This document shows, piece by piece, positions 7,691 to 54,145 of a DNA stretch of 64,000 nucleotides. Within the stretch, counting starts at the first letter, position 1, and each line of letters starts with the position of its first letter. A model generated the notes under the pieces. That model made no database searches and was not told the origin of the DNA. It worked only from the letters and a program-made list of their open reading frames with translations. Position numbers and translations under genes: made by a program. This DNA comes from Candidatus Bathyarchaeia archaeon (GTDB lineage: Archaea; Thermoproteota; CALKCG01; B24), in the NCBI GenBank assembly GCA_038870975.1, contig JAVZJD010000002.1, positions 463,626-527,625 on the forward strand. The letters run 5' to 3'.

Positions 7691-8740
7691 TCATACGATG
7701 GGTTTAATGTAATCTCTACACTCGGCTTCGAAGCTCCCAATAACCAACCTATGATAAGCTTCACCACTCCTACGATCTATAACCATCTCAAGCTTACCAA
7801 GGGCCTCTACAGCATCTCCCACTTCAAAAATACCAGCGTAAAAACCCTCATAAGTCGTAAGCTCAACTAAATCTTCGACCTTAGGACCGCTTAGAAATTC
7901 AACATTCGACAGCTTGTAGACTGCAGGCATGAAGTAGGAGTCGCCAACGTCAACTACTGTAGCTTTAACCTTAACCAAATCACCAGTAGGCTTGTACGTG
8001 AAATCCCCATACTGCTCTGAAGAATCCTCCTCAATCTTTACGGGATGTACTGAGAACTCTGTACCTGCATAAATACCTCTACTCCACACCCTCCTGCATA
8101 TCTCCCAAGCATCCTTTAAACTCAACCCGTACTGTTTAGCTTTACTGAAAACCCACTTATCGAACTCCCCATTACTAAGCCATTGGACAACTCCGTTCTT
8201 CTTAAGTTCGATTAAAGTGCTTCTAATTTTAGAAGCACTTCCCCTACCGTAAACCGTTAAATCCACGTCTGAGAAAGAGGGGTTATGGATTTTGAGAAGT
8301 ATTGAACCAGTTACTCCAAAGTATTCAATAGGTATACCACTAGCTTCAGATAGTAGATCCACGAGTTCAACCGTCCTTCTCTCTAAAACGTCTAAATGTT
8401 CAATGGGTTCTCTGTAGAGTTCTCTCAACCGGAGCTCAGGCTTAAAATGCATTCTAATACTGTCAACGGGAACTGTTATCATCTCCAAGCTCATATGATC
8501 CAACCTACAGACGTAGCGTGGAAAACTGCCCTTCAGGAAGTTTAAAACCTCCTTCACGGACAAGGTTGTGTAAGACTTCAGTATTCGAGAGTATTTACGC
8601 TCCCTACCCCAAAGCCCGAAATCGCTGGGAACATATTTCAAGTAAGATATCACTCTATCCTTAGGGTGAACGTTTCCAATTACGCAGAAGAACATACCTT
8701 CATATGTTTCAAGGAAGTCTCTATCTCTAAACAGCCTCAT
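7691..8740 (-). CDS. uncharacterised nucleotidyltransferase-fold protein (Pol-beta superfamily motif), paralog 1
   Basis: 349 aa; GVTGSILLKIHNPSFSDVDLTVYG = hG[GS]-x11-DhDh NTase signature in the middle of the protein; clear paralogy with 8803-9834. Confidence 0.45.
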   Translation of the reverse strand: MRLFRDRDFLETYEGMFFCVIGNVHPKDRVISYLKYVPSDFGLWGRERKYSRILKSYTTLSVKEVLNFLKGSFPRYVCRLDHMSLEMITVPVDSIRMHFKPELRLRELYREPIEHLDVLERRTVELVDLLSEASGIPIEYFGVTGSILLKIHNPSFSDVDLTVYGRGSASKIRSTLIELKKNGVVQWLSNGEFDKWVFSKAKQYGLSLKDAWEICRRVWSRGIYAGTEFSVHPVKIEEDSSEQYGDFTYKPTGDLVKVKATVVDVGDSYFMPAVYKLSNVEFLSGPKVEDLVELTTYEGFYAGIFEVGDAVEALGKLEMVIDRRSGEAYHRLVIGSFEAECRDYIKPIV

Positions 8741-8802
8741 AACGTGGGATTTGATATCGGTAACTCTTTATATAAGCGTTACATTGGTTTAAGATTTAGA
8801 AT

Positions 8803-9834
8803 ATGAAGCTGAGAGAAGGAGACTTCCTTGAAACCTTGGAAGGCTTCATATTCGACGTTAAAGGCTTCTCCCACCCGCCGGACAGAATAATAGCCTATTT
8901 AAGATATGTTCCAGACGACTTTGGAAGTAGAGTTAGATTCGGAGTGAAATACCGTAAAATCTACAGACTTAAGGATAGAGAGGACTTTCTGAGGAAAAAT
9001 GCTCCAGTATACATATTTAGAAGCCCAGTCTTCAACATGGAGATGCAGGGAGTACCTTTAGAAAGAGTTAAACGCGTTTATAACCCCCAACTGAAGGTTA
9101 AACAGCTTATGGAGCTGGGCGTTAAAGACAATGTTGAAAGAGAAGCCTTAGAATTCGTAAAGCTTCTATCCGTTAAATCTGGAGTGCCCATAGAAAGCAT
9201 GGGGCTCTCCGGATCCATACTAGTCGATCTCCACAATGAAAAATCAGACATAGATTTAATAGTCTACGGAGAGGAAAACTCCCTAAAACTGTACAAAGCC
9301 ATCGGAGAGCTTATGAGCGAACACGATGAAGTTAAACCATACAACTTCGACGAGCTAGCTGAACTATACGAGTTTAGATCTCAAGATACGATTATACCGT
9401 TTAAAGCCTTCCTAAAAGCTGAAGGCGGTAAAAAGACACAGGGCAAGTTTATGGGTAGAAGCTTCTTCATAAGATTCCTACACGATTGGAGTGAAATCTC
9501 CGAGAAATACGGTGATAAAATCTACGAACCCATAGGATTCTGCACGATCAAAGCGGAAGTTTCAGACGATTCAGAGTCGATATTCACGCCATGTAGGTAC
9601 ATAGTTTCAAACGTTCAATTCCTATCCGGCGTAAGAATCAACCCAGCTCAAGTAAGAGAAGTCTACTCTTTCAGAGGCAGATTCTGCGAACAGGCGAAAA
9701 CAGGAGATACTATTAGAGCCTCAGGTAAACTTGAGAAGGTTACAGATTTAAACGGTGAATCCTGGTTTAGATTAGTAGTGGGGGGAGATAGAGGAGACTA
9801 CATAATTCCAGAGAACCTTCTAACAAATATCTAA
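8803..9834 (+). CDS. uncharacterised nucleotidyltransferase-fold protein (Pol-beta superfamily motif), paralog 2
   Basis: 343 aa; GLSGSILVDLHNEKSDIDLIVYG; N-terminal FLETxEG and C-terminal VSNVxFLSG blocks shared with 7691-8740. Confidence 0.45.
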   Translation: MKLREGDFLETLEGFIFDVKGFSHPPDRIIAYLRYVPDDFGSRVRFGVKYRKIYRLKDREDFLRKNAPVYIFRSPVFNMEMQGVPLERVKRVYNPQLKVKQLMELGVKDNVEREALEFVKLLSVKSGVPIESMGLSGSILVDLHNEKSDIDLIVYGEENSLKLYKAIGELMSEHDEVKPYNFDELAELYEFRSQDTIIPFKAFLKAEGGKKTQGKFMGRSFFIRFLHDWSEISEKYGDKIYEPIGFCTIKAEVSDDSESIFTPCRYIVSNVQFLSGVRINPAQVREVYSFRGRFCEQAKTGDTIRASGKLEKVTDLNGESWFRLVVGGDRGDYIIPENLLTNI

Positions 9835-29815: not shown

Positions 29816-30196
29816 TTACTGTTTCAAAGAAGACTGTTTTCGCGGCTTAACGTAGAGGATTAAAGATAGACAAACGACCATAATAGTGAACCATAAAGCT
29901 AAATCTAAGTAGAGAGCTGTAAGGTTGACTCTCCATACGTCGACTGGTCCGTGGATGGTATTTAGTACATGAGTCCCCCAAACTAGCGGATAGCCGTAGT
30001 CTATATGGACATAATCAGGCCAATTGTACTCAGCACTCGAAGTTAAGGCTGAAGTTACGAATATGCTCCATAAAATTGAAAATATTATTGCTAAAGTATT
30101 CCTTGACATATGCATAAACCAAGAGCGGGATAATATAAGGCTTATGACGAAAGTCATCTGTACACAACGATGAGCGGGTCTAAGATGTAGTAGCAA
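29816..30196 (-). CDS. hypothetical small membrane protein
   Basis: Hydrophobic segments; overlaps the upstream gene by 43 nt, so the start may be an internal Met. Confidence 0.3.
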   Translation of the reverse strand: MLLHLRPAHRCVQMTFVISLILSRSWFMHMSRNTLAIIFSILWSIFVTSALTSSAEYNWPDYVHIDYGYPLVWGTHVLNTIHGPVDVWRVNLTALYLDLALWFTIMVVCLSLILYVKPRKQSSLKQ

Positions 30197-31008
30197 GCCA
30201 TGAGCGAAAACACGTATATTACAGTGTACACTAGAATTCTCATCTTTCTATTTAAAGTTGTCTTTGAAAGCTTCAACTTCAAGCATGGTATTATAAATGG
30301 TACTCTACTCTTGTATTCTAAATATTCTCTGCCGAAAGTTTTTTCTAATTCGACTTCCTCATACTCAGCCAGAAGCAGGTACGAATAGCATAGTGTAAGC
30401 CACATGAAGTAATTTATGAGACGCCATCCTGAAACCGCAAAGCCAAGTGTCCATAGGAATATTCCCAAGTACTGCGGATGTCTTACAATGCCATATAGAC
30501 CTTTTGTCAGTAGCACTCCTTTTCTTCTAGTATGCGATAGTAACTGATATAGACTCAGACTGTAAATAAGCATGCCTATGGTGATAAATATATAGCCTAG
30601 CAACTCTACGGTTAAGCATATTTTTTCATCTTGAAGACGGATAATGCCGTTTATCGCCCTACTGACGAAGTCGAACTCCGTTAATATCAGCCAAGGAGTG
30701 TAGAAAACGCCTATAATCGAGAAGAATAGGATGAACATAGGCATTAAAGTGTTAAAGAGTACCGGAAGATAGAAGACCCATCCTATTAAAGTAACAGACT
30801 TTGAAACTTTAAACTCTAGGAAAAGTGTTAATAGTGCTGAAACAGTGGCTACAAGTCCCAGATACACTAAGAACCAAGCGTCTTCTCTGAAAAACACCAT
30901 GTATGTTTCTGACGGCGGTAGACTAAACCCGAATCTAGAAGTCCAAGTATACACCATAAAGGCTATCACGAAAAGTATGACTATTAACTCGTATCTTTTA
31001 GACGGCAA
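30154..31008 (-). CDS. membrane protein with C-terminal isoprenylcysteine carboxyl methyltransferase (ICMT)-like domain
   Basis: 284 aa, multi-pass; GLYGIVRHPQYLGIFLWTLG ... EYEEVELEKTFGREYLEYKSRVP. Confidence 0.6.
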   Translation of the reverse strand: MPSKRYELIVILFVIAFMVYTWTSRFGFSLPPSETYMVFFREDAWFLVYLGLVATVSALLTLFLEFKVSKSVTLIGWVFYLPVLFNTLMPMFILFFSIIGVFYTPWLILTEFDFVSRAINGIIRLQDEKICLTVELLGYIFITIGMLIYSLSLYQLLSHTRRKGVLLTKGLYGIVRHPQYLGIFLWTLGFAVSGWRLINYFMWLTLCYSYLLLAEYEEVELEKTFGREYLEYKSRVPFIIPCLKLKLSKTTLNRKMRILVYTVIYVFSLMACYYILDPLIVVYR

Positions 31009-31222
31009 TTACATCGGAGGAAGAAGAGCATGTAAAATATAAATACGTTTCTACCTTTTTTCATCCAACTCATTGTGAGAACCAAACGTCAATATATGAA
31101 TGATTAGGATTTAACTTTCAAAAACCTTCTATCCGTCAGAAGTCTGTTAAAAAAAGGAATGTTATAAATGGGGTTGAATTCAACGTTAAAACATCAATCG
31201 CTGACGATTATTTTCCATTGTT

Positions 31223-31852
31223 CTACTTATCACCTTTTGGCTTCAAATAGATCTTGCTACCTATGATAGAATTATTAGGTATTAGTACTCGTACACCATC
31301 AGCCTTTATAACGCTTGTAAACAATGTTGCAATATCATCAACAATACCATCTTCCCCAGCTAAGGTAACAGGATCACCGATTTTAAACGGTCTCGCTACC
31401 AATAGGAACAAACCCGCAATAGCTTGCCCCAACACCTGCTGGCATGCAAAACCTATAACCATACCTAGGAAACCTCCCAAAGCAACACCTGCAACACCTC
31501 CAGCTACACCGCCAGCTATAGCTGCGACAAGGGCGCCAATACCTATTATCCTAACAACGTTTCTAATCGCAGCAGCCGTAGCATGATCGTATTTTGCTTT
31601 CATAGACCAGTAGAAGAACATTGCCACACCGCTAACGATCAAGTATCCAAATGCTACGGCAAGCAATATTTGTACGTATGCGATATAATCTATGAGAGGA
31701 GGCAAAAGACTGGTGAAAATCCATTGAACAATTGCCGCAATAATGACATACAAAACTATGTAGAAGACTATTCTCACCATTGTAGCCGAAGTCTTCTTAG
31801 CGATTTCCTCTTTTCTTAATTCTTCTTGTTTCATTGATTGAACTATTGTCAT
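31223..31852 (-). CDS. small-conductance mechanosensitive channel (MscS) family protein
   Basis: 209 aa; TM helices then FKIGDPVTLAGEDGIVDDIATLFTSVIKADGVRVLIPNNSI beta-domain. Confidence 0.7.
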   Translation of the reverse strand: MTIVQSMKQEELRKEEIAKKTSATMVRIVFYIVLYVIIAAIVQWIFTSLLPPLIDYIAYVQILLAVAFGYLIVSGVAMFFYWSMKAKYDHATAAAIRNVVRIIGIGALVAAIAGGVAGGVAGVALGGFLGMVIGFACQQVLGQAIAGLFLLVARPFKIGDPVTLAGEDGIVDDIATLFTSVIKADGVRVLIPNNSIIGSKIYLKPKGDK

Positions 31853-31967
31853 ATTCTCACTGCTTTAATATTATTTCTACGATGAACTAAAAGTTTTTCT
31901 ATAAAACTAGTCCTCTTTTTCATTAATTTTGAAGTTAAAAACATTTTGATTTTCATTCTATATCAGA

Positions 31968-31977
31968 GATAAAATTT
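31968..31977 (+). promoter_or_regulatory. TATA-box-like element upstream of tRNA-Ala
   Basis: ATAAAATTTA about 30-39 bp upstream of the tRNA 5' end. Confidence 0.3.
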
Positions 31978-32006
31978 ATCAACCACTTCATTTGACTGAT
32001 TCATGT

Positions 32007-32081
32007 GGGCCGGTAGTTCAGCCTGGTATGAATACCTGGCTCGCACCCGGGTGGTCGCGGGTTCAAATCCCGCCCGGTCCA
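32007..32081 (+). tRNA. tRNA-Ala (anticodon CGC)
   Basis: Cloverleaf: acceptor GGGCCGG/CCGGTCC with G3:U70 Ala identity pair, anticodon loop CTCGCAC, T-arm GCGGGTTCAAATCCCGC, followed by T5. Confidence 0.85.
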
Positions 32082-32100
32082 CTTAATTTTTAAGCGGACC
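32076..32100. repeat. hairpin/inverted repeat overlapping the tRNA-Ala 3' end (GGTCCACTTAA-TTT-TTAAGCGGACC)
   Basis: Arms 32076-32086 and 32090-32100 are reverse complements (10/11). Confidence 0.6.
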
Positions 32101-32611
32101 CTTAAACAAAGGAATATCATTTATCCTTTAATTGATGAGCGTTGAGGGCCAAGTCCACTTATTTGCTTGAGGATGAGAGATGCCCAGTGCTAATTCGATA
32201 ATCTGGTGGCTAAGTCTTATTTGATGGCCACTGTTTCGCGAATTGAAAACAGCATGATGTGAGCTTACATTTAGAAATTTAAAGCGATTACAGAGATATT
32301 AAGAAACAGTAAATCACATTAAAAAAGGGATGATTGCTTTCCGTTATAAGTTAATGAGCCTTAAAGCCCATATCATGCTCATCGATCCAGAAATTGAAGA
32401 GTCGACTAGCCACTGGGTCATAGTATAGAATTACCCATCCAATACTGCGCATTGCTCACAACGTTACAAATTTCCGTATAGACTCTATCAGTACATTTCT
32501 CTACTTTCAGCAATGCTTTGAGTAGAACCTTCAAGTCGCTTGGATCTTTTGACAAGTAGTTACTTCAAAAGCGACGCCATCGTAAAGCTTTCTTAATTAT
32601 TTAATTGCATA

Positions 32612-32628
32612 CCGCCTGGTCCGCTTAA
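32612..32628. repeat. direct repeat of the tRNA-Ala 3' end (15/17 match to 32070-32086); arm 32618-32628 is a perfect inverted repeat of 32090-32100
   Basis: CCGCCTGGTCCGCTTAA versus CCGCCCGGTCCACTTAA. Confidence 0.6.
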
Positions 32629-32779
32629 GTTAAAAGTGGAGGATTTTAACTTCAATGTAAGGAGTAGAAAATAAAAATTTACATGGAAAATATTGGAGAA
32701 AATATTATAAAATTAGAATTTCAAAGTTTTTCTATTTTGAAACGACTTTCCCATTCGTGTTCTATATAAATATAATAGA

Positions 32780-33544
32780 ATGATTATAAGTACGATGGCA
32801 TACAAATCCGAGATATCAGTAATAGGGCAGATAGAGACCGGTATTGAAGGCTTAGACCTCCTCCTTAAAGGCGGATTCATAAAAGGGACTACAGCACTCC
32901 TCATAGGACCCGTGGGTACTTTAAAGCCACATATTGGTTTTCAATTTCTTCATACAGGGTTAAAATCCGGAGAAAGGTGCTTCTGTCTAAGTACTACTCA
33001 GGATCTAAAAATTAGAAGCATGCAGTTTAAGATAAACTACGGCTGGGATTTAGAAGGCTATGTGAAAAATGGGAAGCTGGACTTCCTGTACTTTTCGCCG
33101 ATTGCAGTTCAGAGTTCAACCTACAAGTTTGTAGTGAGCGAATCAGGCGGGAGTGATATAATCAGGGAGGTCCTCCATAGGATAACGGGAGACGTCACTA
33201 GAATATTGATTCACACTCTATCTCAACTGTTTAAAATAATAGGCGATGAAAAGTTAGTGCTAAGCCTAGTTTACAGGTTGAAAGAACTAGTTAGGAAGAA
33301 CAACGCAGTAGCAATTTTCACAATCGACAGTGGCATTCAAAACAGTAGTGTAGAAGAAGAAGTTAAGTCGATATGTGACTATGTTCTAGAAACTAGGGAA
33401 TATCAAAGTAGAGTAGAGATACGACTGTTAAAATCACTGACAAGACACGATTTAGAGTGGCGAAGAGTATACACCATGGAGGACGGAGTATACGTTCAGC
33501 AAAACTTGAAGACCCCAGTCCACTACATTAACAATTTAGACTGA
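32780..33544 (+). CDS. KaiC/RecA-superfamily ATPase-like protein with degenerate Walker A and B motifs
   Basis: 254 aa; GLDLLLKGGFIKGTTALLIGPVGTLKP (Walker A lacks canonical GK[ST]) and ILIHTLSQL at the Walker B position (no Asp/Glu). Confidence 0.5.
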   Translation: MIISTMAYKSEISVIGQIETGIEGLDLLLKGGFIKGTTALLIGPVGTLKPHIGFQFLHTGLKSGERCFCLSTTQDLKIRSMQFKINYGWDLEGYVKNGKLDFLYFSPIAVQSSTYKFVVSESGGSDIIREVLHRITGDVTRILIHTLSQLFKIIGDEKLVLSLVYRLKELVRKNNAVAIFTIDSGIQNSSVEEEVKSICDYVLETREYQSRVEIRLLKSLTRHDLEWRRVYTMEDGVYVQQNLKTPVHYINNLD

Positions 33545-33635
33545 TGTCTATCTCTATTTATTTTTGTCAAGGCTGAAAATGGCTGGATTAGACATGTTAA
33601 ACGATCTAACCTAATCGCTTTGCAAGGCAATTCTT

Positions 33636-33869
33636 TTATCCATTGTTTACAGCCAGCCATTGTATACGTGACCATTGTGAGAAGATATTTACTATAGTAC
33701 CAGCCCCTCGTAGAACATGCTTCCAAATTAAAACTGTAGGCAATTCAACGGGTTGTTCGTGGAGTTTAACTTTTCCAATTTCAAAAACACTATGTGCTTT
33801 TCCAAACTTAACAAGTAATTCCATAATCACCAAACTCTATTTAGGAAAATGCGAAAAACTTTTATCGGA
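33636..33869 (-). pseudogene. decayed duplicate of the promoter and first ~55 codons of the mtrH-like gene
   Basis: 33703-33869 aligns to 39324-39492 at about 80% identity; encodes ...FEIGKVKLHEQPVELPTVLI then frameshifts relative to MtrH. Confidence 0.55.
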
Positions 33870-34126
33870 AGATTTCCATTCCTCTTCATTTGAATTCTAG
33901 AAGACCACCTTGCTTCCTCCATCGGTATTAATACAGTCGAGTATAAGCTCTACAAAGCGTGCAATGCTTAGACTCCTGCTATCCGCCTCAGCCTTAAGCT
34001 TTTAAAATTTCACATTTTTCGATTTTCAACACGCTTTTTTTAAGCTTTTATCTTTTTCAGCTCCTTTACCGTTTGATTTATGCATTCTTCGAATCCCCTC
34101 CCAGCCAAGTGGAAGCCGCCTAAAAC

Positions 34127-34192
34127 CGCGTAAACTGCTTCTACGCGTGTAAGTTGCTACGCGTAAAGTATTGTGTTTACTACGCCACGTGG
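34127..34192. repeat. three degenerate tandem units with a CGCGT core
   Basis: CGCGTAAACTGCTTCTA / CGCGTGTAAGTTGCTA / CGCGTAAAGTATTGTGTTTACTA in otherwise AT-rich non-coding DNA. Confidence 0.4.
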
Positions 34193-34441
34193 ACTACTTC
34201 CTAACATTGAACAATATGCTGTGAGCCGCGCCTCTGTCAAAGACGCGAACAAGCATTGAGAAGCATGTTCAGCAATAGGGTAGTGGAAAGCCTTCTCTAC
34301 TCAATCTCTGAAGTCTTTAACCTTCTTACTTGAAGAAGTTGATAAGAGGTCTATGGAATTATCCATGAGACTGATTATCTCTACTCTTTCAGCCTCTCTA
34401 AGCTTTAAAAACTGATTATTTCCTTTCATAGAAGATATTCT

Positions 34442-35041
34442 TTACAGTGTTCCCCTATAATAGATTGTTGCTGGACAGCCGACGCACTTCCCGTCAACGT
34501 ATCTTGCACATGGCTTACAGTCGACCTTACACGGTGCGATACTCCCCCTTCTACTGGCGAGACATTCTCTCACCAGGAGGAATTGTGAAAAGTATATATT
34601 GCTCACTGGGTAAAATTCCGACCTTCTCACACCAGCACCACTTCTGATAGAGCATTTCTCAATAGAGATGCTTTCAAGAGTATTCTGATCCTCAGCGACA
34701 ACAATGGCTATCAAATTATATCCGCCTAAAGTCTTAAATATTTGGACAACTCTCGGACAATATCTAAATCTGTCGAGAAGATTTTGCATCGCCTCAGCAC
34801 TCTCCATCTCAAGTAGAACTATTGCTGTGAAAAGTCTGAAATAGAAGGGGTTTATTAGCGCCAATACTCTAATAGCATCTTGCTCAATAAGCTTCTGAAG
34901 CCTCTTCCTAACCCCCATACTAGTATATTCTGTGACCTCTGCAAGCTCTCCTAATGTTGCTCTCCCATTCAATTGAAGCTTTGAAATAATCTTCCTATCG
35001 ATATCATCCAAGGCTTCCACCTCAGTTTTATTTCTAAACAT
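34442..35041 (-). CDS. Lrp/AsnC-family transcriptional regulator with C-terminal Cys-cluster extension
   Basis: 199 aa; HTH IDRKIISKLQLNGRATLGELAEVTEYTSMGVRKRLQKL, RAM-like middle, C-terminal CKVDCKPCARYVDGKCVGCP. Confidence 0.6.
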   Translation of the reverse strand: MFRNKTEVEALDDIDRKIISKLQLNGRATLGELAEVTEYTSMGVRKRLQKLIEQDAIRVLALINPFYFRLFTAIVLLEMESAEAMQNLLDRFRYCPRVVQIFKTLGGYNLIAIVVAEDQNTLESISIEKCSIRSGAGVRRSEFYPVSNIYFSQFLLVRECLASRRGSIAPCKVDCKPCARYVDGKCVGCPATIYYRGTL

Positions 35042-35044
35042 AAA

Positions 35045-35056
35045 CTATTTAAATAG
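35045..35056. promoter_or_regulatory. perfect 12-bp palindrome CTATTTAAATAG in the divergent promoter between the Lrp-like regulator and the mrp-led operon
   Basis: Self-complementary; located in the 50-bp intergenic region 35042-35091. Confidence 0.4.
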
Positions 35057-35091
35057 CTTATATATTAAACTTTTCAACAGGCAGTTGTGAT

Positions 35092-35937
35092 ATGAACAAC
35101 GAAGTAGAGACAGCAGATAAAGAGAGGACACAGATTGAAGAGCAGGAGCAAATATTAAAGTTTAGAATGGGGAAGATAAAACATAAAATTGCCGTCATAA
35201 GCGGTAAGGGTGGTGTTGGTAAGAGCATGGTTACTGTAAACCTTGCAGTTGCATTTGCAATACGTGGACACATCGATAAAGTTGGAATTCTAGATGCTGA
35301 TATTCACGGTCCAAGCATACCGAAAATGCTGGGGTTAAGCGGTCAAAGACTTCAAGCCGGGCCACCAGGAGTTTTCCCAGCTACCAGCCCCCTGGGGATT
35401 AAGGTTGTTTCAATGGGTTTTCTCCTACCAGATGAAAATACTCCCATCATCTGGCGTGGGCCACTAAAGATGACGGCTATACGACAATTCCTATCAGATG
35501 TTGTTTGGGGTGAACTCGACTTACTGCTGATAGATTTACCACCTGGAACTGGCGATGAGTCTCTGAGCGTAGCACAACTACTGCCAGAGATGGATGGGGT
35601 TGTAATCGTCACAATTCCATCTGAGGTTTCTCAGATAGTTGTTAAAAAGGCAGTTAATTTCGCTAAAAAGCTTGGCCTGCCAGTTATAGGTGTAATTGAA
35701 AACATGAGCGGCTTTATATGTCCAAACTGCGGAGCGAAGATTGACATATTCCGGTCTGGCGGTGGAAAGAAAATAGCTGAGGAAATGGATGTGCCATTCC
35801 TTGGAAGCATACCGGTAGACCAAGAGATATGTGAATCCTCCGATAAAGGCATACCATTCATAGCTGAGCATAAGGATTCACCAGCATCAAAAGCCTTCAT
35901 GGAGATTGTCCAGAGAATCGAGCAAATACTAGAGTAG
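35092..35937 (+). CDS. Mrp/ApbC/NBP35-family iron-sulfur cluster carrier ATPase
   Basis: 281 aa; deviant Walker [15 protein letters not shown] and CPNCG cluster-ligand motif. Confidence 0.85.
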
Positions 35938-36060
35938 AGCGAGGTTTGCGAAATCCTAGGTGGAGGTGTAGTCTAAGATGGAGATGTTAGTTGAAAAATA
36001 TATGAAAATTGGAAACTTACGTGTAAAAATCAAGTTTATAGTTATAAGGGAGGTGTAAGA

Positions 36061-36435
36061 TTGGTGGAGAGAATAATCATACCTACTGAAGATGGAAGTG
36101 GGCTTAATGCCAGATTATCTGAACATTTCGGAAGAGCACCATACTTCATCGTAGTTGATCTAGATGAGGATAATAACATTTTGAACGTTCAAGCAGTGCT
36201 AAACACGGGTGAGCACTTCGGTGGAATAGGTCGACCAGCCGATAACATACTGCGGCTTAGACCTAACGCTGTAATCACCTATGGTATGGGTCCACGAGCA
36301 CTAAGTATATTCCAGAACGCTAGAGTTGCTGTGCTGAAGGCTAATGCGAATACTCTCAGGGATGTTATTGAAGCATATAAGCAGGGTGTTCTTAAGGAAC
36401 TCACGGAAGGCTGTCGCTACACCCGCCACAGATAA
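36061..36435 (+). CDS. NifX/NafY-like dinitrogenase FeMo-cofactor-binding-domain protein (Nitro_FeMo-Co family)
   Basis: 124 aa; HFGRAPYFIVVDL and ITYGMGPRA pattern. Confidence 0.7.
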   Translation: MVERIIIPTEDGSGLNARLSEHFGRAPYFIVVDLDEDNNILNVQAVLNTGEHFGGIGRPADNILRLRPNAVITYGMGPRALSIFQNARVAVLKANANTLRDVIEAYKQGVLKELTEGCRYTRHR

Positions 36436-36504
36436 ACAATTACAGGTTAACAGCGGTATAATGTAAACTCTTTAGTCAAGAAGAATGGACGTGAAGCCTC
36501 CTCT

Positions 36505-36798
36505 ATGATATCATTAATTGCTAGTGGTAAAGGCGGAACTGGGAAGACCTCACTCGTAGCTAACATAACCATTTCAGTAAGAGATGACATTCAGATACTG
36601 GATTGCGATGTCGAAGAGTCAAACATACATTTACTTCTACATCCTAAAATAGTCAGCGAGAAAACAGTTTACAATACAATCACCTTTGATCTAAATGTTA
36701 CTGAGGCGATAGTTAATGGAAAAACGATCATAGAATATTCTCCGGAAACTGATGCCTTAAAGGAAATAGAAAGAGTATGGGAAGGATTCTCAGCATAA
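36505..36798 (+). CDS. MinD/CooC-like P-loop ATPase reduced to a 97-aa stub
   Basis: ASGKGGTGKTS P-loop and DCDVEESN motif, but the central region present in full-length family members is missing. Confidence 0.5.
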   Translation: MISLIASGKGGTGKTSLVANITISVRDDIQILDCDVEESNIHLLLHPKIVSEKTVYNTITFDLNVTEAIVNGKTIIEYSPETDALKEIERVWEGFSA

Positions 36799-36840
36799 TT
36801 GGACTTCCTAGAAATAAAAGTTGCTGAGGGGAAACAGTAA

Positions 36841-37530
36841 ATGGTGTCACTAGTATTTGGTCCTGTCCCATCTAGACGTTTAGGGAGAAGTCTAGGGATA
36901 AATAACGTCCCATATAAGACGTGCACATACTCATGCGTCTACTGTCAACTGGGGAAGACAACAAACATGTTTGTTAAAAGACGATGCTTCTATAAACCAG
37001 AGGATATCTTAATAGCGGTTGAAAACAAAGTTAAGGAAATCCTTTCAAAGGGTGAGAGGATAGATTATTTAACTTTTGCCCCAGATGGCGAGCCAACTCT
37101 GGATATTAATATTGGAAGAGGAATATCGCTCGTAAAGCAGATAGACCTCCCAGTAGCAGTAATAACCAATGCTTCCCTACTCTGGAATCGTAGGGTGAGA
37201 GAGAGTCTGCTGGAAGCTGACTTTGTCTCATTAAAGGTTGATGCAGTCAGCCAAGACTTATGGCGGGTGTTGAATAGACCACATAAAAGCCTACAGTTGA
37301 ATGATGTTTTAGAAGGCGTAAGAAAGTTTACAGAAACATTTGAGGGGACAATCATAACCGAAACAATGCTTATCGACGGCATAAAATACGACGAGGAGTT
37401 TAAGCGAATAGCAGACTTTCTTGGAAAACTAGACAAATTAAATACTGCTTATATTGCAGTACCCACAAGACCACCTGCAGAAAAGTGGGTTAAGCCAGCT
37501 AGAAAAGAAGCCTTAAATGAGGCATTTTAA
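36841..37530 (+). CDS. radical SAM enzyme, small (229 aa), family unassigned
   Basis: CTYSCVYC (Cx3Cx2C) cluster motif; N-terminal GPVPSRRLGRSLGIN. Confidence 0.7.
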   Translation: MVSLVFGPVPSRRLGRSLGINNVPYKTCTYSCVYCQLGKTTNMFVKRRCFYKPEDILIAVENKVKEILSKGERIDYLTFAPDGEPTLDINIGRGISLVKQIDLPVAVITNASLLWNRRVRESLLEADFVSLKVDAVSQDLWRVLNRPHKSLQLNDVLEGVRKFTETFEGTIITETMLIDGIKYDEEFKRIADFLGKLDKLNTAYIAVPTRPPAEKWVKPARKEALNEAF

Positions 37531-37569
37531 GCCTTCTCCAAGATACTTGGAAGCTATAGGGTAAAATTC

Positions 37570-37788
37570 TTGGTAGAGTATGAAAAGAATGATTTCACTT
37601 TAACGGGAAAAATTGAAGATGACATACTCAGCATAGCTGCCGTACATCCAATACGTAAAGAAGTGATAGTAAGTCTTCTAAAAAGGGTTGGAGCAGACTG
37701 GCAAATCTTAGAAAAACTTCTTCAAGAAGGTAAACTGATAAAACTCAAATATGGTGGAAATGAATACTATAGGAGCAAACTTAGGTAA
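37570..37788 (+). CDS. hypothetical protein (72 aa), last gene of the cassette
   Basis: ORF only; no motif recognised. Confidence 0.25.
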   Translation: MVEYEKNDFTLTGKIEDDILSIAAVHPIRKEVIVSLLKRVGADWQILEKLLQEGKLIKLKYGGNEYYRSKLR

Positions 37789-37942
37789 GAAAACTTGAAA
37801 GACTTTACACTATATATCTGTTAATAGAGTAGAAGTGTCCACTCTTTTAATTTTCCTGTTTCTAATGTTGTTACACCGATAAGTACCTTATCTATGACGT
37901 CTGAGACAAGTACTGGCACTATTTCACTTCTCCCCTCCAGCT

Positions 37943-38171
37943 CTATTCATATTCTTGGTCTCTCAAGATTGATCTTCCAGCACCACTCTCCGCAATGGAT
38001 CTACTAGTCGCCTTAAGATCGAGAAACGTAGCTATCTTGCGTGGTATAATTGTAAGCGTAGCGCTAGTATCAACTAAGGCGTTAACCTCAACGAGTCTAA
38101 CGCAACTTTCATCAGCTATTTCAGCCGGGGCCCAACATGACCCAAAAATAATCCCTAAACTTAAACCTCAT
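37943..38171 (-). pseudogene. retropepsin-like aspartyl protease gene fragment, frameshifted
   Basis: Minus-strand frame encodes ...CVRLVEVNALVDTSATLTIIPRKIATFLDLK (DTG-like active-site block) without a start codon; an ATG at 38171 opens a 17-codon ORF in another frame. Confidence 0.35.
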
Positions 38172-38517
38172 GGTGTTTAAATTCTTCCTTAGGCAATTTT
38201 CAAGTTTCCAGGATTATTGTAAAGGTGTTCTCTGCTATTTTAGTCCCATTCCTCTTTGCCAATATAATGTATAAGGAATGTATATAGCTATGCTCCGTTT
38301 AGAGGATATTTTAAATGCTCAATCTATGGTTTCGCTGAACACTCTCATTTTCCTCCTTAACCCATTCTGGAACATTAACGCTCACCGCAGTCATTAACCA
38401 TCAACATGAGTTTCGATACAAATTCAATAAAACCCCTAGTGGTAAACCATCGTTTAAGACGCCTAAAAATATTGACTAGCTTCTCCCAGAAGCTAAGTAA
38501 AATTTCCCTATCCAAAT

Positions 38518-39435
38518 CTAAATCATCCTATACAACGGATGATTTTTAACTAGCGGCTTTATCCCTATGCTTCTTGCATGGTAAGCGACTATTGCATCGA
38601 TCATTGCACAGATGGGAAAGATATGCTTAGCTTTTGCAATAGAGCCGTAAATAATAAAGTTTGCTCCCATGGTTTGAGCGAGAGCTAAAGCCCCACCTCT
38701 ACACGCTATCTTCACGTTTTCTTCTAAACCTTTAGTTTTACTCCATTTCCCCACAGCGCCTATCGGCGCTGTTCCAGTCGGCATGCCAAATTCTTCCTTA
38801 GCTAGATAGATGCCTCGAGCCGCAAAGCCTATGCTTGGAACGTCTAAAACCAGCATGAAGATTAAGGGCTTCTCTATGCCAGCTTTTAAAGCTCTAGCAA
38901 CCAACCCCTCTTCTTCAGCAGATCCTTTAAGAATTTGGATCATACCAGCTGGATATGGATTTCTAGGATTAAAGGCCTGGATAATAGCGGCCTTTAGCTT
39001 TACCCCTCTAATGGCTTCGACCTCCTCTCTACTTAACGTATAGTTTATGGAGTTATAGACAGCTCTCTCCTGAAGCCCCACTTCTCTCACATAATTTGCC
39101 GCTCCAATTCTTATGGACGCGTTAGATCCATTTATTAGGAATGGGCTGTCAGTAACGTTTGATACGAATTCAATGTACTTTATGAGAGCTATAGAGTTTT
39201 CTCCAACCACGTCAAGCATACAAGGAACACCTGTTTTCTCAGACAGCTCTTCTTGAACAAGTATCAGTCTTTCAGCCTCTCTTCTATTGAAGAGCCCTGA
39301 AGACTTATCTTGAACTATCCTATGCCCCTCGTGGAATATACTTCCAATTAAAACTGTAGGCAATTCTCCAGGTTGCCCGCCGACTTTAACTTTTCCAATT
39401 TCAAAAATACTCTGCGTTTTTTCAAACTTAAACAA
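38518..39435 (-). CDS. mtrH: MtrH-family methyltransferase (tetrahydromethanopterin S-methyltransferase subunit H-like)
   Basis: 305 aa; N-terminus (TTG start) FKFEKTQSIFEIGKVKVGGQPGELPTVLIGSIF and overall colinearity with MtrH. Confidence 0.75.
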   Translation of the reverse strand: MFKFEKTQSIFEIGKVKVGGQPGELPTVLIGSIFHEGHRIVQDKSSGLFNRREAERLILVQEELSEKTGVPCMLDVVGENSIALIKYIEFVSNVTDSPFLINGSNASIRIGAANYVREVGLQERAVYNSINYTLSREEVEAIRGVKLKAAIIQAFNPRNPYPAGMIQILKGSAEEEGLVARALKAGIEKPLIFMLVLDVPSIGFAARGIYLAKEEFGMPTGTAPIGAVGKWSKTKGLEENVKIACRGGALALAQTMGANFIIYGSIAKAKHIFPICAMIDAIVAYHARSIGIKPLVKNHPLYRMI

Positions 39436-39513
39436 GCAATTCCACCATCAACTAGACTCTATTTAGGAGAGCTACTAAAAACTTTTATCGGAGGAGTATG
39501 AAGCTGATATCTA

Positions 39514-39999
39514 ATGAAGAAATTAAAGCATTCCTTTAAAGTCGGCATGAGTTTTGGTTTAACTTCAGGGATAATTACAACGCTCGGTTTAATAGTCGGC
39601 CTCCACTCTGGCACACATTCGAAGCTTGCAGTTATAGGAGGGATATTAACTATAGCAATAGCCGATGCGTTCTCCGACGCGCTTGGAATACACATGTCTG
39701 AAGAGTCAGAGGCGAGACACAGCTCGAAGGAAATTTGGGAGTCTACAGCTTCAACCTTCCTATTTAAATTCACATTTGCTTTAACATTTATAATTCCAGT
39801 AATAACACTTGATTTGACTACGGCTATAATTGCGAGTGTAATCTGGGGTATCATCCTCATTGGATTCTTCAGCTACATTATCGCTAGAGAACAAAAAGAG
39901 AATCCTTGGAACACTGTCATTGAACATTTGATCATAGTAGTTGTAGTCGTAATAATCGCACATTTAATAGGAGACTGCATCGCCTCCATATTCGGTTAA
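39514..39999 (+). CDS. VIT1/CCC1-family membrane transporter domain protein
   Basis: 161 aa; AIADAFSDALG motif and several hydrophobic helices. Confidence 0.65.
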   Translation: MKKLKHSFKVGMSFGLTSGIITTLGLIVGLHSGTHSKLAVIGGILTIAIADAFSDALGIHMSEESEARHSSKEIWESTASTFLFKFTFALTFIIPVITLDLTTAIIASVIWGIILIGFFSYIIAREQKENPWNTVIEHLIIVVVVVIIAHLIGDCIASIFG

Positions 40000-40019
40000 A
40001 AATCAAACGACTATTTCTC

Positions 40020-40379
40020 TTAGAAACCAGGGTCTCCTTCAACAACTTTAACGTTCACCTGCAAGGTATCCTCTGTTATAGTGTTCCCTCTAACCAGCTT
40101 TCTAACTCTAACCCCTTCCTTCCTTGGATTAAAGCCAGGACCCTCTGAGATTAAAATGTACTTTTTCACTCCTCCTCTAACATCAGGCCTCATGGGTATT
40201 CCATCTTTATCACTACCACCAGTTATGAGGAGTTTAACTTTACCTAAACCCATGACTGAACCGTCTATAACCTCACCTATTCTACGACCTAGAAGCGGAA
40301 CAGCCTGTACGCCTTCAACTTCAAAAGTTCTGGACTTACCTGTTTTAGGGTTGGCTACTACGAGTTTAAACTTAGCCAT
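40020..40379 (-). CDS. rps6e: 30S ribosomal protein S6e
   Basis: 119 aa; MAKFKLVVANPKTGKSRTFEVEG. Confidence 0.85.
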   Translation of the reverse strand: MAKFKLVVANPKTGKSRTFEVEGVQAVPLLGRRIGEVIDGSVMGLGKVKLLITGGSDKDGIPMRPDVRGGVKKYILISEGPGFNPRKEGVRVRKLVRGNTITEDTLQVNVKVVEGDPGF

Positions 40380-40465
40380 GGCGCTCCCCTTCTAATGATG
40401 TTTACGCTACTATAAAGGTTTCTCTTCCTAGGTCAAGAAAAGTGCCAGTTAAGCCTGCATGAAAT

Positions 40466-42259
40466 TTAGAAACCCCATAGAGCTTTCTTTCTCCTCTTTA
40501 CTTCCGCGAATTCCTCTAGAACAGCATGCTCTTCAGCGGATAGGATATCAGGATACGTCTGCTTGAACATCTTATAGTGCTGCTCAGGGACGTCTACGTA
40601 GAGAATATCACCCTCGTCGACATTCCTACCGATTATCGCATTATCTATAGATATTGCCACCTGCATGCCTCTAGTCGCCTCAGGAATAGTCTTACCCCTA
40701 TCTTGAACCTGAAGAATAGCTCCGACGCTTTCTCCATCATCTCTTATGAGCTCCTCCCTAGGTTTAACCCTTCCAGCCAGCACTTCTACACCGACTATGG
40801 CAGGCTTACTCCTCCTAAATACATAGCCTGGTAGTATTTTCAGCTTACCTGGAAAAATCAAAGTGCTAATTATCATCTTCGTCTTTTCCTCCTGTTTAAC
40901 CTTAAACCACGCAACATAATCTTCAACAACTCTGTATATTATATTACTTATGAAGACTGGAATCCCAGCCGATTCTTCCGTAGCCTCAGGTAGGATTTTA
41001 ACGTTAAATCCGAGGATTACACCATACTCCGGTTTTTCCCTAGCTGTAACCTTAGCTTCTGTGAAATCGCGCTTTGAAACATCACCTATATCAGCTAATC
41101 TAACCGGTATGCCCCTCTTGTTGAGCTCGGTTATCAACGCCTCAAGAGCACCCAACGTATCTGCTTTAACTACGACTCCAATTTTATCTGTTTTTATCCG
41201 AAGCCTACCAATTTCTTCAGACAGCTTTTTAACATATTCTTCAACCGAAGCACCCTCCGGAACAGCATAAAGCGGAGACCCTGGAATAGCATCTTCAAGG
41301 TTTGGAGCTGCTATCTTGACGCCGACTGCTGCTACAACTTTATCGACTTTCATAAAACCTCCTGTGGGAGCTCTAATCTCATCTAGAGGCTTGGGGAGGA
41401 GTAGCGACCTAACTTTAGTAACTATAGGCTTCTCTTTACCAGCTAAAACTATGATATCATCTACCTTTAGAATACCATCGTAGATTATTACGTTTACCGT
41501 CACCCCTAATCCGACTTCCTCTTTAACTTCCAGTACTGTTCCCCTAGCTGCTCCACTAGTAGTTTCAAGCCTCGCTTTAAGATACTGCTGAGTTAAACCT
41601 ATAAGGACTAGGAGAAGGTCCGGTATCCCCTCACCCGTTTTAGCACTCACTGGAACAAGGGCTACGGTCCTAGTGAAATCTTTAATCCGATCATATCTAT
41701 CTGCTTGGAAGCCCAATTTTGAAAGCTCTCCTATGATAAGATAGAGCCTGGCGTCTAGGTCTTTTCTAACGTAAGGGTCTTGAAGCCTAAAAGTCTCGTT
41801 GAACGGCTTGTCGTAGTTTGGCTTCCAACCAGGTATAAGGTCTATTTTATTAACGGCGACTAAGAACGGTACTTTCCTAGACCTTAAAAGCTCTATAGAT
41901 TCTATCGTCTGCTCCTCCACGCCTTTAATAACGTCTATCACTAAAATCGCTATATCTGCTACGGAGCCTCCACGCATCCTCAAATTCATAAATGCGCTGT
42001 GACCTGGGGTGTCTATTACTAAGAGGCCTGGAACTCTTATCTTCCACCCAGTTTTAGCAAGTAGAGATTCACAAGACTTTTCCAACGCATCCAGAGGGAA
42101 GAAACTTGCACCTATATGTTGAGTCATTTCCCCAGGCTCTTTTAAGGTGACAGCAGTCCCCCTAATCTTATCTAAAAGCGTAGTTTTTCCGTGGTCTACA
42201 TGTCCTAAGACAACAACTATGGGTTGTCTTATGGTTCTATCCTGCTTTTCAATATCCAT
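40466..42259 (-). CDS. infB: translation initiation factor aIF5B (IF-2 homolog)
   Basis: 597 aa; G-domain GHVDHGKTTLLD, DTPGH, NKID. Confidence 0.9.
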   Translation of the reverse strand: MDIEKQDRTIRQPIVVVLGHVDHGKTTLLDKIRGTAVTLKEPGEMTQHIGASFFPLDALEKSCESLLAKTGWKIRVPGLLVIDTPGHSAFMNLRMRGGSVADIAILVIDVIKGVEEQTIESIELLRSRKVPFLVAVNKIDLIPGWKPNYDKPFNETFRLQDPYVRKDLDARLYLIIGELSKLGFQADRYDRIKDFTRTVALVPVSAKTGEGIPDLLLVLIGLTQQYLKARLETTSGAARGTVLEVKEEVGLGVTVNVIIYDGILKVDDIIVLAGKEKPIVTKVRSLLLPKPLDEIRAPTGGFMKVDKVVAAVGVKIAAPNLEDAIPGSPLYAVPEGASVEEYVKKLSEEIGRLRIKTDKIGVVVKADTLGALEALITELNKRGIPVRLADIGDVSKRDFTEAKVTAREKPEYGVILGFNVKILPEATEESAGIPVFISNIIYRVVEDYVAWFKVKQEEKTKMIISTLIFPGKLKILPGYVFRRSKPAIVGVEVLAGRVKPREELIRDDGESVGAILQVQDRGKTIPEATRGMQVAISIDNAIIGRNVDEGDILYVDVPEQHYKMFKQTYPDILSAEEHAVLEEFAEVKRRKKALWGF

Positions 42260-52801: not shown

Positions 52802-54145
52802 TTAATTTCCGAATTCACGTAATATGTTAGCGGCGTATGCGACGCCTTTGACTAAATGGTCAATTGTATTAAACTCGTTAGGAGCATGGGCTTTAGAGAA
52901 AGGTGGAGCGCACCCAGTCCAAATAGAATTTAAATGTAGAAGTCTGGTAAAAACGTAATCTGGTCCTGAGCCAGCAGCACTTGGATATAATATTGGTCTA
53001 GCTTTGTACACTTCCTCAGCTGCATACGAGGAAGTTTTAACTATCCGTGCTGAAGGGGGTGTTTTAGACGGCAAGAGAGAACCTAATTTAACGATTTCCA
53101 CGTCTCTGTAGCCCTTAGAGTCTAAATGTCTTCTAAGAAGGGTTAAGAGTTTATCTGGATTTTGATTCATTACTAATCTGAAATCCAACTTTACAACGGC
53201 TTCGCATGGAAGGACGGTTTTAGGACCCTCTTCAATATAACCACACCTTAAACCAGCAATGTTAGCAGTGGGTTCACATATTAACTTTCTAAGCGCATCA
53301 ACTCCTTTAACCCCATCTAGGAATTCTTCAACCCCAAATTCTCTCATAATATCCTCATCTTCATGAGGGAGTTCCGAGATTAACCTAGCTTCTTCTGAAG
53401 TAATTGGTTGAATATCATCATACCAGCCTTTAATATTTATCCGTCCATCTGGAGACCTTATAGAGTTTAAAGCCCATACAAGCCTCCAAGCTGGATTAGC
53501 AATCAGCGGTGCATAAGAAGAGTGGGCATCTACCTTAGCAGTTTTACACCTCAGCTCGACATATAACATACCCTTAACTCCTAAGTAAATCGATGGTCTA
53601 TTCGAAGGATGGAGCCCACCATCCCAACATACAACGGCATCAGACTTAAGAAGGTCTTTATGGGTTTCTACGAAATCTGGAAGGTTTGGACTTCCAATCT
53701 CCTCTTCGCCTTCGAAGAGAAACTTGACGTTTACAGGCGTAGACTTTCCACTTTTGATATAATATTCAACTGCTTTAAGAAAAGCCATTATATTGCCCTT
53801 TGAATCTGAAGCCCCCCTCGCTATGATCTTACCGTCCACCACTTCCGCTTCAAAAGGCGGGTAGACCCATTCGCTTAGGGGGTCTGGAGGCTGAACATCG
53901 TAGTGGCTATAGATTAAAAGAGTCTTACTAGACTCTTGAGATTTAACTTCACCATAGACTACTGGATTACCCTTACTTTGAACAACATCAGCATACATGC
54001 CTAGATCTTCCATTAAATCTCTCAGAAGAAGAGCACATTCATTGATGCCTATGTTTTTCGCCGAAATACTTGGTTGTCTGAGGAGACACCGGTACTTATC
54101 TATAAGATCGTCAAGCGTAAGCTTCACATAACTTAATATATCCAT
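52802..54145 (-). CDS. M20-family metallopeptidase (ArgE/DapE/CPG2-like)
   Basis: 447 aa; YSHYDVQP, GASDSKG, FEGEEEIGS metal-site motifs. Confidence 0.7.
   Translation of the reverse strand: MDILSYVKLTLDDLIDKYRCLLRQPSISAKNIGINECALLLRDLMEDLGMYADVVQSKGNPVVYGEVKSQESSKTLLIYSHYDVQPPDPLSEWVYPPFEAEVVDGKIIARGASDSKGNIMAFLKAVEYYIKSGKSTPVNVKFLFEGEEEIGSPNLPDFVETHKDLLKSDAVVCWDGGLHPSNRPSIYLGVKGMLYVELRCKTAKVDAHSSYAPLIANPAWRLVWALNSIRSPDGRINIKGWYDDIQPITSEEARLISELPHEDEDIMREFGVEEFLDGVKGVDALRKLICEPTANIAGLRCGYIEEGPKTVLPCEAVVKLDFRLVMNQNPDKLLTLLRRHLDSKGYRDVEIVKLGSLLPSKTPPSARIVKTSSYAAEEVYKARPILYPSAAGSGPDYVFTRLLHLNSIWTGCAPPFSKAHAPNEFNTIDHLVKGVAYAANILREFGN

Follow-up and report, generated by a model that had tools for sequence, protein, structure and literature searches.

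A decayed partial copy of mtrH and the probable recombinational loss of mtrH and its neighbouring gene cluster in an uncultured Bathyarchaeia species

The 64,000-nt stretch of Candidatus Bathyarchaeia archaeon DNA analysed here (assembly GCA_038870975.1, contig JAVZJD010000002.1, positions 463,626 to 527,625; referred to throughout as the window) contains two direct copies of a segment that spans the mtrH promoter and the start of the gene. mtrH is here a stand-alone homologue of the gene for the H subunit of tetrahydromethanopterin S-methyltransferase. The first copy, R1, belongs to the intact gene; the second, R2 or the stub, lies on the far side of a cassette of other genes and pseudogenes. 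We consider it very probable that R2 has no function and goes back to an old partial duplication of mtrH, that recombination between R1 and R2 later deleted mtrH and the cassette, and that the window represents the ancestral long allele. Judged by the deletion junctions in genomes of the same species, the later recombination step can be taken as demonstrated; the step by which the stub originated is one that we infer.

Results

Two copies of the mtrH 5′ end in the window

When the 64-kb window was compared with itself by blastn, a single strong non-trivial match was found. Positions 33703–33872 (R2) and 39324–39495 (R1) align in direct orientation over 173 columns, with 82.7% identity and 4 gap openings (E 2.3e-40), and both a repeat search and a MAFFT alignment agree with this result. 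The three remaining matches were weak (E at least 1.6e-4). The repeat period, from R1 to R2, is 5,620 bp. R1 consists of 60 nt of the 78-nt intergenic region between mtrH and the upstream VIT-family gene (39514–39999, + strand), together with 112 nt of mtrH coding sequence (Table 1). Beyond both ends of the repeat, local alignment scores were no higher than those of shuffled sequences; the borders are sharp and there is no further homology. The longest run that is identical between R1 and R2 is a 21-nt core, GAATTGCCTACAGTTTTAATT.

A preliminary description of this DNA, made from the letters alone, had proposed a direct duplication of the mtrH promoter and 5′ end. The self-comparison bears this out: the match lies far above chance, and the two copies had been placed correctly. 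A 5′ coding part of mtrH is indeed duplicated, its length being 37 codons and not the ~55 that had been suggested. The left copy had rightly been described as frameshifted and lacking the rest of the gene; it has two 1-nt indels and covers codons 1–37 only.

The stub is not an assembly artefact, because it is 100% identical in an NCBI metagenome-assembled genome (MAG) contig and in an independent Logan assembly (loci L031 and L032). The window sequence, stub included, is found in the Bathyarchaeia MAG GCA_038884135.1 (contig JAVZKS010000004.1), and the exact MtrH protein of the window is present in four NCBI MAG records.

Conspecific genomes with a single chimeric copy

A scan of metagenome contigs with a 23-mer common to both copies gave two JGI contigs (L037 and L038), and an exact look-up of the S6e protein of the window gave 24 contigs of the same species. 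Eighteen of the 24 are of a deletion type, five are of the window type and one is truncated. The short allele is represented by the MAGs GCA_038854475.1, GCA_038841515.1, GCA_038856355.1 and GCA_038867235.1 and by samples such as SRR7540159, JGI 3300025090 and ERZ27245617/28, the long allele by SRR27170999 among others. The gene order in the deletion type is GluRS–aIF5B–S6e–VIT, then one repeat copy, then a KaiC-like gene, and the flank shared between the two types is 99.35% identical.

Read from the VIT side, the single copy in the deletion-type genomes is identical to R1 through ...CAACCTGGA; from the extra T onward it is identical to R2, including the +T frameshift of R2 and the flank downstream of it. 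The switch from R1 to R2 falls inside the 21-nt core in all 10 of the short-allele loci examined (L037, L038 and eight further loci). Compared with R1, the single copy has four differences within the 23 nt that follow the core on its downstream side, whereas the 125 nt on the upstream side match throughout, the pattern that a chimera should show. The junction predicted by joining the window up to 33746 to the sequence from 39367 onward matches L038 with 0 mismatches from −134 to +158 nt (290 nt), and an exact 40-mer across this junction is also present in L037. The stretch that is missing is exactly as long as the repeat period, and apart from it the flanks are collinear. The short genomes carry a chimeric stub and no intact target; the short alleles are therefore deletion products and not empty sites.

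The 5,620-bp segment that these genomes lack holds the upstream part of R2, a metallo-beta-lactamase (MBL)-fold pseudogene, the AsnC, Mrp and NifX genes, a MinD remnant, the radical SAM gene, the retropepsin and VapBC remnants, and mtrH from about codon 24 onward. The suggestion in the preliminary description that the copies delimit an interval was correct in this sense, the two repeats bounding a unit that is present in some genomes and absent from others.

The long arrangement in related species

The closest different relatives are the Logan contigs L033–L036, whose MtrH is 88% identical at the amino acid (aa) level. Their gene order is S6e–VIT–mtrH–VapB–VapC–retropepsin–radical SAM–MinD fragment–NifX–Mrp–AsnC, with VapBC and the retropepsin called as full-length open reading frames (ORFs). 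A more distant Bathyarchaeia locus, L007, has the same gene order as the window, and there AsnC is followed by an intact MBL gene. A second mtrH 5′ end is present neither in the sister-species contigs L033–L036 nor in L007. In the third close relative, L023, the cassette is gone; this locus has an L033-like arrangement with a clean 6.5-kb deletion of its own, which runs from the VapC end to the middle of an ABC-2 permease gene (L023 11637–11963 against L033 2000–8525). Lineage-specific deletions are the rule at mtrH-cluster loci across Bathyarchaeia.

S6e and VIT give the species tree (window, (L033/L035, L023)). The interval genes are 87.5–89.7% identical (aa) to those of L033 and the flanking genes are 84–90% identical to those of L023, a similar range. 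The G+C content of the interval is 0.409 and that of its flanks 0.396 and 0.420. The same gene order without a stub in L033/L034 and L007, together with the matching divergence, shows that the interval was vertically inherited at this position and is not an insertion.

The preliminary description had instead treated the interval as an inserted cassette and had named site-specific integration as a possible origin, in which case the interval would be a mobile cassette in the mtrH 5′ end and the two copies would be attL and attR. Direct repeats do bracket a unit that is variably present among conspecific genomes, and a tRNA-Ala gene, whose 3′ end recurs as a degenerate copy, is found 1.6 kb off in a neighbourhood that has probably hosted integrations. 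Nevertheless, we regard integration here as extremely improbable, and the comparison with syntenic loci goes against an insertion of any kind: sister species and L007 carry the interval beside VIT–mtrH, at the same position and in the same order, with no second copy. Domain searches of the interval genes found neither an integrase nor a transposase nor any other gene for mobility. Identity between the copies is only 83%, with 4 gap openings, where an integration would predict identical or nearly identical ones, and the interval resembles its flanks in both divergence and G+C content. The geometry is also the wrong one, since integration at a 5′ end would leave the stub upstream of the reconstituted gene, whereas R2 lies downstream of intact mtrH, and the short allele is a chimeric truncated stub with no intact mtrH.

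A different possibility is that the short allele is the older one and that the long allele was formed from it, with mtrH restored, when a 5,620-bp circle was inserted in the Campbell manner or when a donor strain supplied a replacement for the allele. In formal terms, the core would serve insertion as well as excision, most of the public contigs (18 of 24) have the short allele, and the 100% identity across both sides of the junction means that the event was recent in either direction. We nonetheless judge this reversal to be very unlikely. The circle would need the complementary chimera, with the upstream half of R2 and the downstream half of R1, which can be obtained only from a long allele, and nothing in a short-allele genome could have supplied the upstream half of R2, which is 83% identical to R1. 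The reversal would also leave the origin of the structure unexplained and would describe at most the movement of a long allele between strains. Because the outgroups (L033/L034 and L007) have the long arrangement and because an insertion circle could only have come from a long allele, the window appears to carry the ancestral allele.

Source and decay of the stub

Over 165 aligned sites, the stub is 84% identical to the mtrH of the window, 83% to that of L033 and 82% to that of L023. None of the other mtrH loci exceeds 77%, and that over shorter parts of the coding sequence; in the promoter they cannot be aligned. These values indicate that the stub was derived from the mtrH of the window/L033/L023 clade itself. 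A relic of an ancient paralogue located after the cassette, as seen in L006, L013 and L009, was also considered and was rejected because the stub and its promoter match this clade only. In four-taxon site patterns, five sites group the stub with the window against L033 and L023, compared with two and zero for the alternatives; one of the states shared by stub and window, an AAA Lys codon, is derived relative to the outgroups. The duplication appears to have arisen in the lineage of the window after its split from the L033/L023 lineage, but long ago, and its timing is only approximate.

Since their common ancestor, the stub has acquired 19 private substitutions and 2 frameshifting 1-nt indels, compared with 4 substitutions and 2 indels in the mtrH of the window. 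Differences between the two fall on codon positions 1, 2 and 3 in the proportions 5:4:7. The conserved GG of the GGQPGE motif has become HE in the stub and invariant glycines have been lost. The numbers of substitutions and frameshifts, their spread over codon positions and the loss of the motif all argue that the stub is a neutrally decaying relic.

The stub could alternatively be a functional element, retained as a second promoter, as a decoy for regulator binding or as a gene for a protein of 62–65 aa. R1 and R2 share two candidate promoter blocks, CCGATAAAAGTTTTT and CCTAAATAGAG, without a single difference; a 65-aa ORF is open in the stub and a 62-aa ORF is called in the NCBI MAG annotation. 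Retention for a function is nevertheless very doubtful. The promoter part (about 80% identical between R1 and R2) is no better kept than the coding part (about 85%), the substitutions are even over codon positions and the two indels break the MtrH frame. The stub has no Pfam match. It is absent from the sister species, and its upstream half has been lost in 18 of the 24 conspecific contigs and is therefore dispensable. An RNA element in the duplicated 5′ region was likewise rejected: neither copy gave a structure signal, with folding z-scores of −0.17 and 0.03, and an Rfam search (E <= 1) over 30000–41000 returned only tRNA-Ala and a chance tRNA-like match, with no family at the stub.

Origin of the stub and of the deletion

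The locus has the arrangement promoter–mtrH–interval followed by promoter–37 codons. The stub has the same orientation as mtrH, starts at the upstream boundary of the unit and lies directly past the end of the unit, which fits a tandem duplication of a 5.6-kb unit with a truncated second copy. We propose that a unit of ~5.6 kb, beginning with the mtrH promoter and ending shortly after the MBL gene, would have been duplicated in tandem, and that a deletion would then have left no more than the initial 170 nt of the second copy. Such a truncating deletion is plausible because the interval has at least six other independent deletions or lesions. The order of these two steps could also be reversed, with a deletion first and then an unequal exchange between genome copies. 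The stub would have decayed neutrally, alongside the other inactivating lesions of the interval. Later, homologous recombination between R1 and R2, presumably of the RadA type, crossed over within the 21-nt identical run and excised precisely 5,620 bp. A single chimeric stub remained, and all of mtrH beyond about codon 24 was lost together with the whole radical SAM/MinD/NifX/Mrp/AsnC cluster. Of the two origins offered in the preliminary description, the aborted tandem duplication is thus kept as the likely one, since the geometry fits, and site-specific integration is rejected.

The stub may also have arisen in one step, if a 170-nt patch of the mtrH 5′ region was copied once and placed at a distance of 5.6 kb, for instance as filler DNA or through a template switch while the break that also destroyed the 3′ end of the MBL gene was being repaired; the later deletion would be unchanged. 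This route needs one event instead of two. The stub stands exactly at the synteny break, between the MBL remnant and the variable region next to the tRNA, both of its borders are sharp, and local alignment past the stub revealed no second repeat of the tail of the unit above the level of shuffled sequences. No intermediate with two full copies was found, which also suits a single patch. Against this, frequent deletions are evident at the locus, the orientation of the stub and its start at a plausible unit boundary are those that a tandem duplication predicts, and templated patch insertions of this size are, to our knowledge, poorly documented in archaea. Tandem duplications and deletions are common. 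A patch is therefore possible but, in our estimate, clearly the less probable origin.

Several points weigh against the history of tandem duplication, decay and deletion that we favour. The footprint would look no different if 170 nt alone had been copied in one step, and a longer or full second copy was found in none of the genome contigs, the protein database, the metagenome contigs or the 24 conspecific contigs, as would be expected if the intermediate was short-lived. The dating of the duplication depends on about 14 informative sites. The stub branch, at ~0.12–0.15 substitutions per site, is roughly half of what the synonymous divergence of the neighbouring genes would lead one to expect for a duplication dating from the species split. 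The junction is the same in every deletion-type contig, so that a single event and recurrence at the core look alike, and the counts among the 24 contigs are of non-independent samples. Finally, the KaiC–MscS patch beside the junction is about 8% diverged between the alleles and has several indels, compared with 0.65% divergence elsewhere; the deletion allele therefore did not come from a chromosome identical to the window, and additional recombination has to be assumed.

Genes between the repeats

The features of the interval and its surroundings are listed in Table 1. Besides the decay of the stub, the interval carries at least six other deletions or gene-inactivating lesions.

Table 1. Positions of mtrH, the repeat copies and neighbouring features in the window
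Feature	Position	Strand	Remarks
tRNA-Ala(CGC)	32007..32082	+	Anchors the strain-/species-variable region abutting the stub
Flank downstream of stub	33536..33702		Whole flank identical in deletion-type genomes
R2, decayed stub copy of mtrH promoter and codons 1–37	33703..33872	-	From alignments
21-nt core GAATTGCCTACAGTTTTAATT in R2	33726..33746	-	Same identical run as in R1
Segment absent from deletion-type genomes	33747..39366		5,620 bp; junction match in L038 and L037
Metallo-beta-lactamase-fold pseudogene	34040..34436	-	Internal deletion of ~450 nt; intact L007 orthologue matches Lactamase_B
AsnC/Lrp-type regulator, Cys-rich C-terminus, intact	34442..35041	-	Domain match
Mrp/NBP35-type iron-sulfur cluster carrier ATPase, intact	35092..35937	+	Domain match
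NifX/NifB-type (Nitro_FeMo-Co) protein, intact	36061..36435	+	Second paralogue of relatives missing here
97-aa remnant, N-terminus of one MinD/CbiA-type ATPase gene fused in frame to C-terminus of the next	36505..36798	+	Deletion of ~1.5 kb
Radical SAM gene, split by in-frame TAA (37528–37530)	36841..37788	+	229-aa and 72-aa ORFs; one continuous frame in L007
Retropepsin-like aspartyl protease pseudogene, frameshifted	37824..38146	-	Intact L007 orthologue matches Asp_protease_2
VapB (RHH)/VapC (PIN) toxin–antitoxin remnants	38177..38400	-	Pair intact in L033
mtrH, intact, 305 aa, TTG start	38518..39435	-	Pfam MtrH 2e-83, full length
R1, source copy	39324..39495	-	60 nt of mtrH promoter region (39436–39495) and mtrH codons 1–37 (39324–39435)
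21-nt core GAATTGCCTACAGTTTTAATT in R1	39346..39366	-	Identical in R1 and R2; switch point of deletion-type genomes inside

The MBL-like and retropepsin-like fragments had been identified correctly in the preliminary description, as the domain matches of their intact L007 orthologues confirm. The CGCGT repeat array that was also reported there is not one: Tandem Repeats Finder finds none, and the stretch is coding sequence of the MBL-fold pseudogene, which aligns with the intact L007 gene.

The radical SAM gene is present as two ORFs (36841–37530 and 37570–37788), its last 72 codons forming the separate second one. In L033 this gene is broken at another site and in L007 the first ~185 codons are deleted; as the lesions differ between the window, L033 and L007, the gene was therefore inactivated independently in three lineages. 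The MinD/CbiA-type remnant corresponds to two separate full genes in L017, L004, L013 and L019. A different part was lost in L033, where NifX2 is kept and NifX and the MinD N-terminus are gone. The spacers at 33873–34039 and 33625–33702, on either side of the stub, match nothing in any fetched locus by tblastx and blastn, and the adjoining stretch 33536–33624 is conserved beside tRNA-Ala in the sister species (L033).

The mtrH gene

The Pfam MtrH match of the gene covers its full length, and the closest homologues of its product are Bathyarchaeia proteins that are called MtrH by their sources. Stand-alone MtrH proteins of Bathyarchaeia and other non-methanogenic archaea have been proposed to carry methyl groups between corrinoid proteins and tetrahydromethanopterin (PMC7886697), and the phylogeny of stand-alone MtrH homologues is reported to show a complicated history with frequent signals of horizontal gene transfer (PMC8407382). 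The gene in the window resembles these homologues in being a full-length MtrH, and differs from those proposed to serve corrinoid proteins in that no corrinoid-protein gene adjoins it. Its recurrent neighbour is the radical SAM/MinD/NifX/Mrp/AsnC cluster. Across Bathyarchaeia (L001–L024), mtrH almost always adjoins parts of this cluster; the side and orientation of mtrH relative to the cluster vary, and in L017 and L024 it lies inside. A functional link between Bathyarchaeia MtrH and the cluster is possible.

The synonymous divergence (dS) of mtrH from L023 is 0.28–0.56, whereas that of the neighbouring genes is 0.7–1.5. In every species pair, including L035–L023, the synonymous divergence of mtrH is 2–3 times below that of S6e, VIT, aIF5B and GluRS, and the effect is strongest in the first 110 codons (38518–39435 against L023 and L035). 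A recent horizontal replacement of mtrH, which the low dS from L023 might have suggested, was rejected, as dS is proportionally low in every pair of a three-way comparison; mtrH therefore has a slow synonymous rate and was not recently transferred. The low values point to strong constraint at the codon or nucleotide level or to a locally low mutation rate.

Two of the related loci have damaged mtrH genes. In L023 (10001–10917) a frameshift splits the gene into ORFs of 115 and 190 aa, and in L007 (9788–10666) the start of a NifX-like gene has taken the place of the first ~27 codons, and the frame stops prematurely. Either case may be real decay or an assembly error.

The tRNA-Ala neighbourhood

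The 3′ end of tRNA-Ala (32068–32086) is repeated in direct orientation at 32610–32628, 542 nt downstream, with 16 of 19 positions identical (0.01 such matches expected by chance). This copy is consistent with the scar of an old integration at the tRNA gene. Near tRNA-Ala in L023 there are inserted HEPN/nucleotidyltransferase, ACR3 and ArsR genes, followed by TnpB/IS fragments.

Only a 37-residue remnant of an Fe/Mn superoxide dismutase gene is present in the window (32366–32476). Short-allele contigs (L039, 12301–13331) have an intact 97-aa ORF and the superoxide dismutase gene between the KaiC-like gene and tRNA-Ala. When 31300–33600 was compared with L038 and L039, the patch containing MscS, tRNA-Ala and the KaiC-like gene was found to differ by about 8% and by large indels, and its surroundings to be 99.3–100% identical, which suggests that the patch is an imported or long-separated haplotype block. 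The superoxide dismutase remnant and the diverged patch point to further recombination or decay near the tRNA.

Two minor observations were made elsewhere in the window. A 52-nt inverted match (81% identity, E 5e-4) links 35989–36037 with 53720–53771, and a 292-nt imperfect palindrome (65% identity, E 1.6e-4) is located at 8628–8912.

Discussion

The deletion resembles the 'pop-out' between direct repeats that is used in the pyrE/pyrF pop-in/pop-out genetics of Haloferax, Thermococcus and Sulfolobus, the bacterial counterpart of which is RecA-dependent repeat-mediated deletion. In each of these, repeats in the same orientation flank a segment and one hybrid repeat remains; the length of the deletion equals the repeat period, and the switch lies in a run of perfect identity. 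The present case differs in having occurred naturally, in a population of uncultured Bathyarchaeia. Its repeats also share only 83% identity over 170 nt, with a perfect core of 21 nt, so that the recombination was homeologous, and one of them is the pseudogene stub of the gene that was destroyed. A literature search on short-homology recombination in archaea gave nothing directly usable. The mechanism is a known and ordinary one of which both states are preserved, and no new mechanism is involved.

The origin of the stub can be compared with the duplication–loss model, in which a tandem duplication is followed by truncation. The orientation of the stub, its upstream boundary, its place after the end of the unit and its neutral decay are all as in that model, and mtrH is found on different sides of the cassette across Bathyarchaeia, as repeated duplication and loss would give. 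Our case departs from the model in that the duplication is reconstructed and an intermediate with two full copies did not turn up. Archaeal and bacterial integrative elements flanked by att sites, at tRNA genes or gene ends, share with the locus a direct repeat of a gene end that brackets a variably present segment of several genes. Unlike them, the locus has no integrase, its repeats are diverged and its segment is ancestral in the sister species; moreover, the stub lies downstream of the intact gene, where integration would not leave it, and the short allele is a chimeric truncated gene. Differing in four defining features, the locus does not belong among these elements.

A more speculative idea is that the 5,620-bp unit acts as a reversible module, a circle carrying mtrH (with the decayed R2 half as its promoter) and the Fe-S/NifX-type cluster that re-enters short-allele chromosomes through the 21-nt core. 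We give this only a very small chance of being right. If it were, re-entry of the circle or of the long allele in a polyploid archaeon or after transfer between strains would restore an intact, correctly promoted mtrH, and the population would toggle a methyl-transfer function by homologous recombination with no dedicated recombinase.

Under the history that we favour, a leftover gene stub later served as the recombination substrate that erased the functional gene and five or more of its neighbours in one step, and both alleles as well as outgroups are in hand. The locus is a natural example, from an uncultured Bathyarchaeia species, of recombination between 170-nt repeats of 83% identity through a 21-nt perfect core. 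For annotation, the 59–65-aa 'MtrH-like' ORFs in these MAGs are relics and not genes. Strains of this species differ in whether they carry mtrH and the conserved radical SAM/MinD/NifX/Mrp/AsnC cluster, and metabolic reconstructions from single MAGs may consequently call mtrH or the cluster present or absent.

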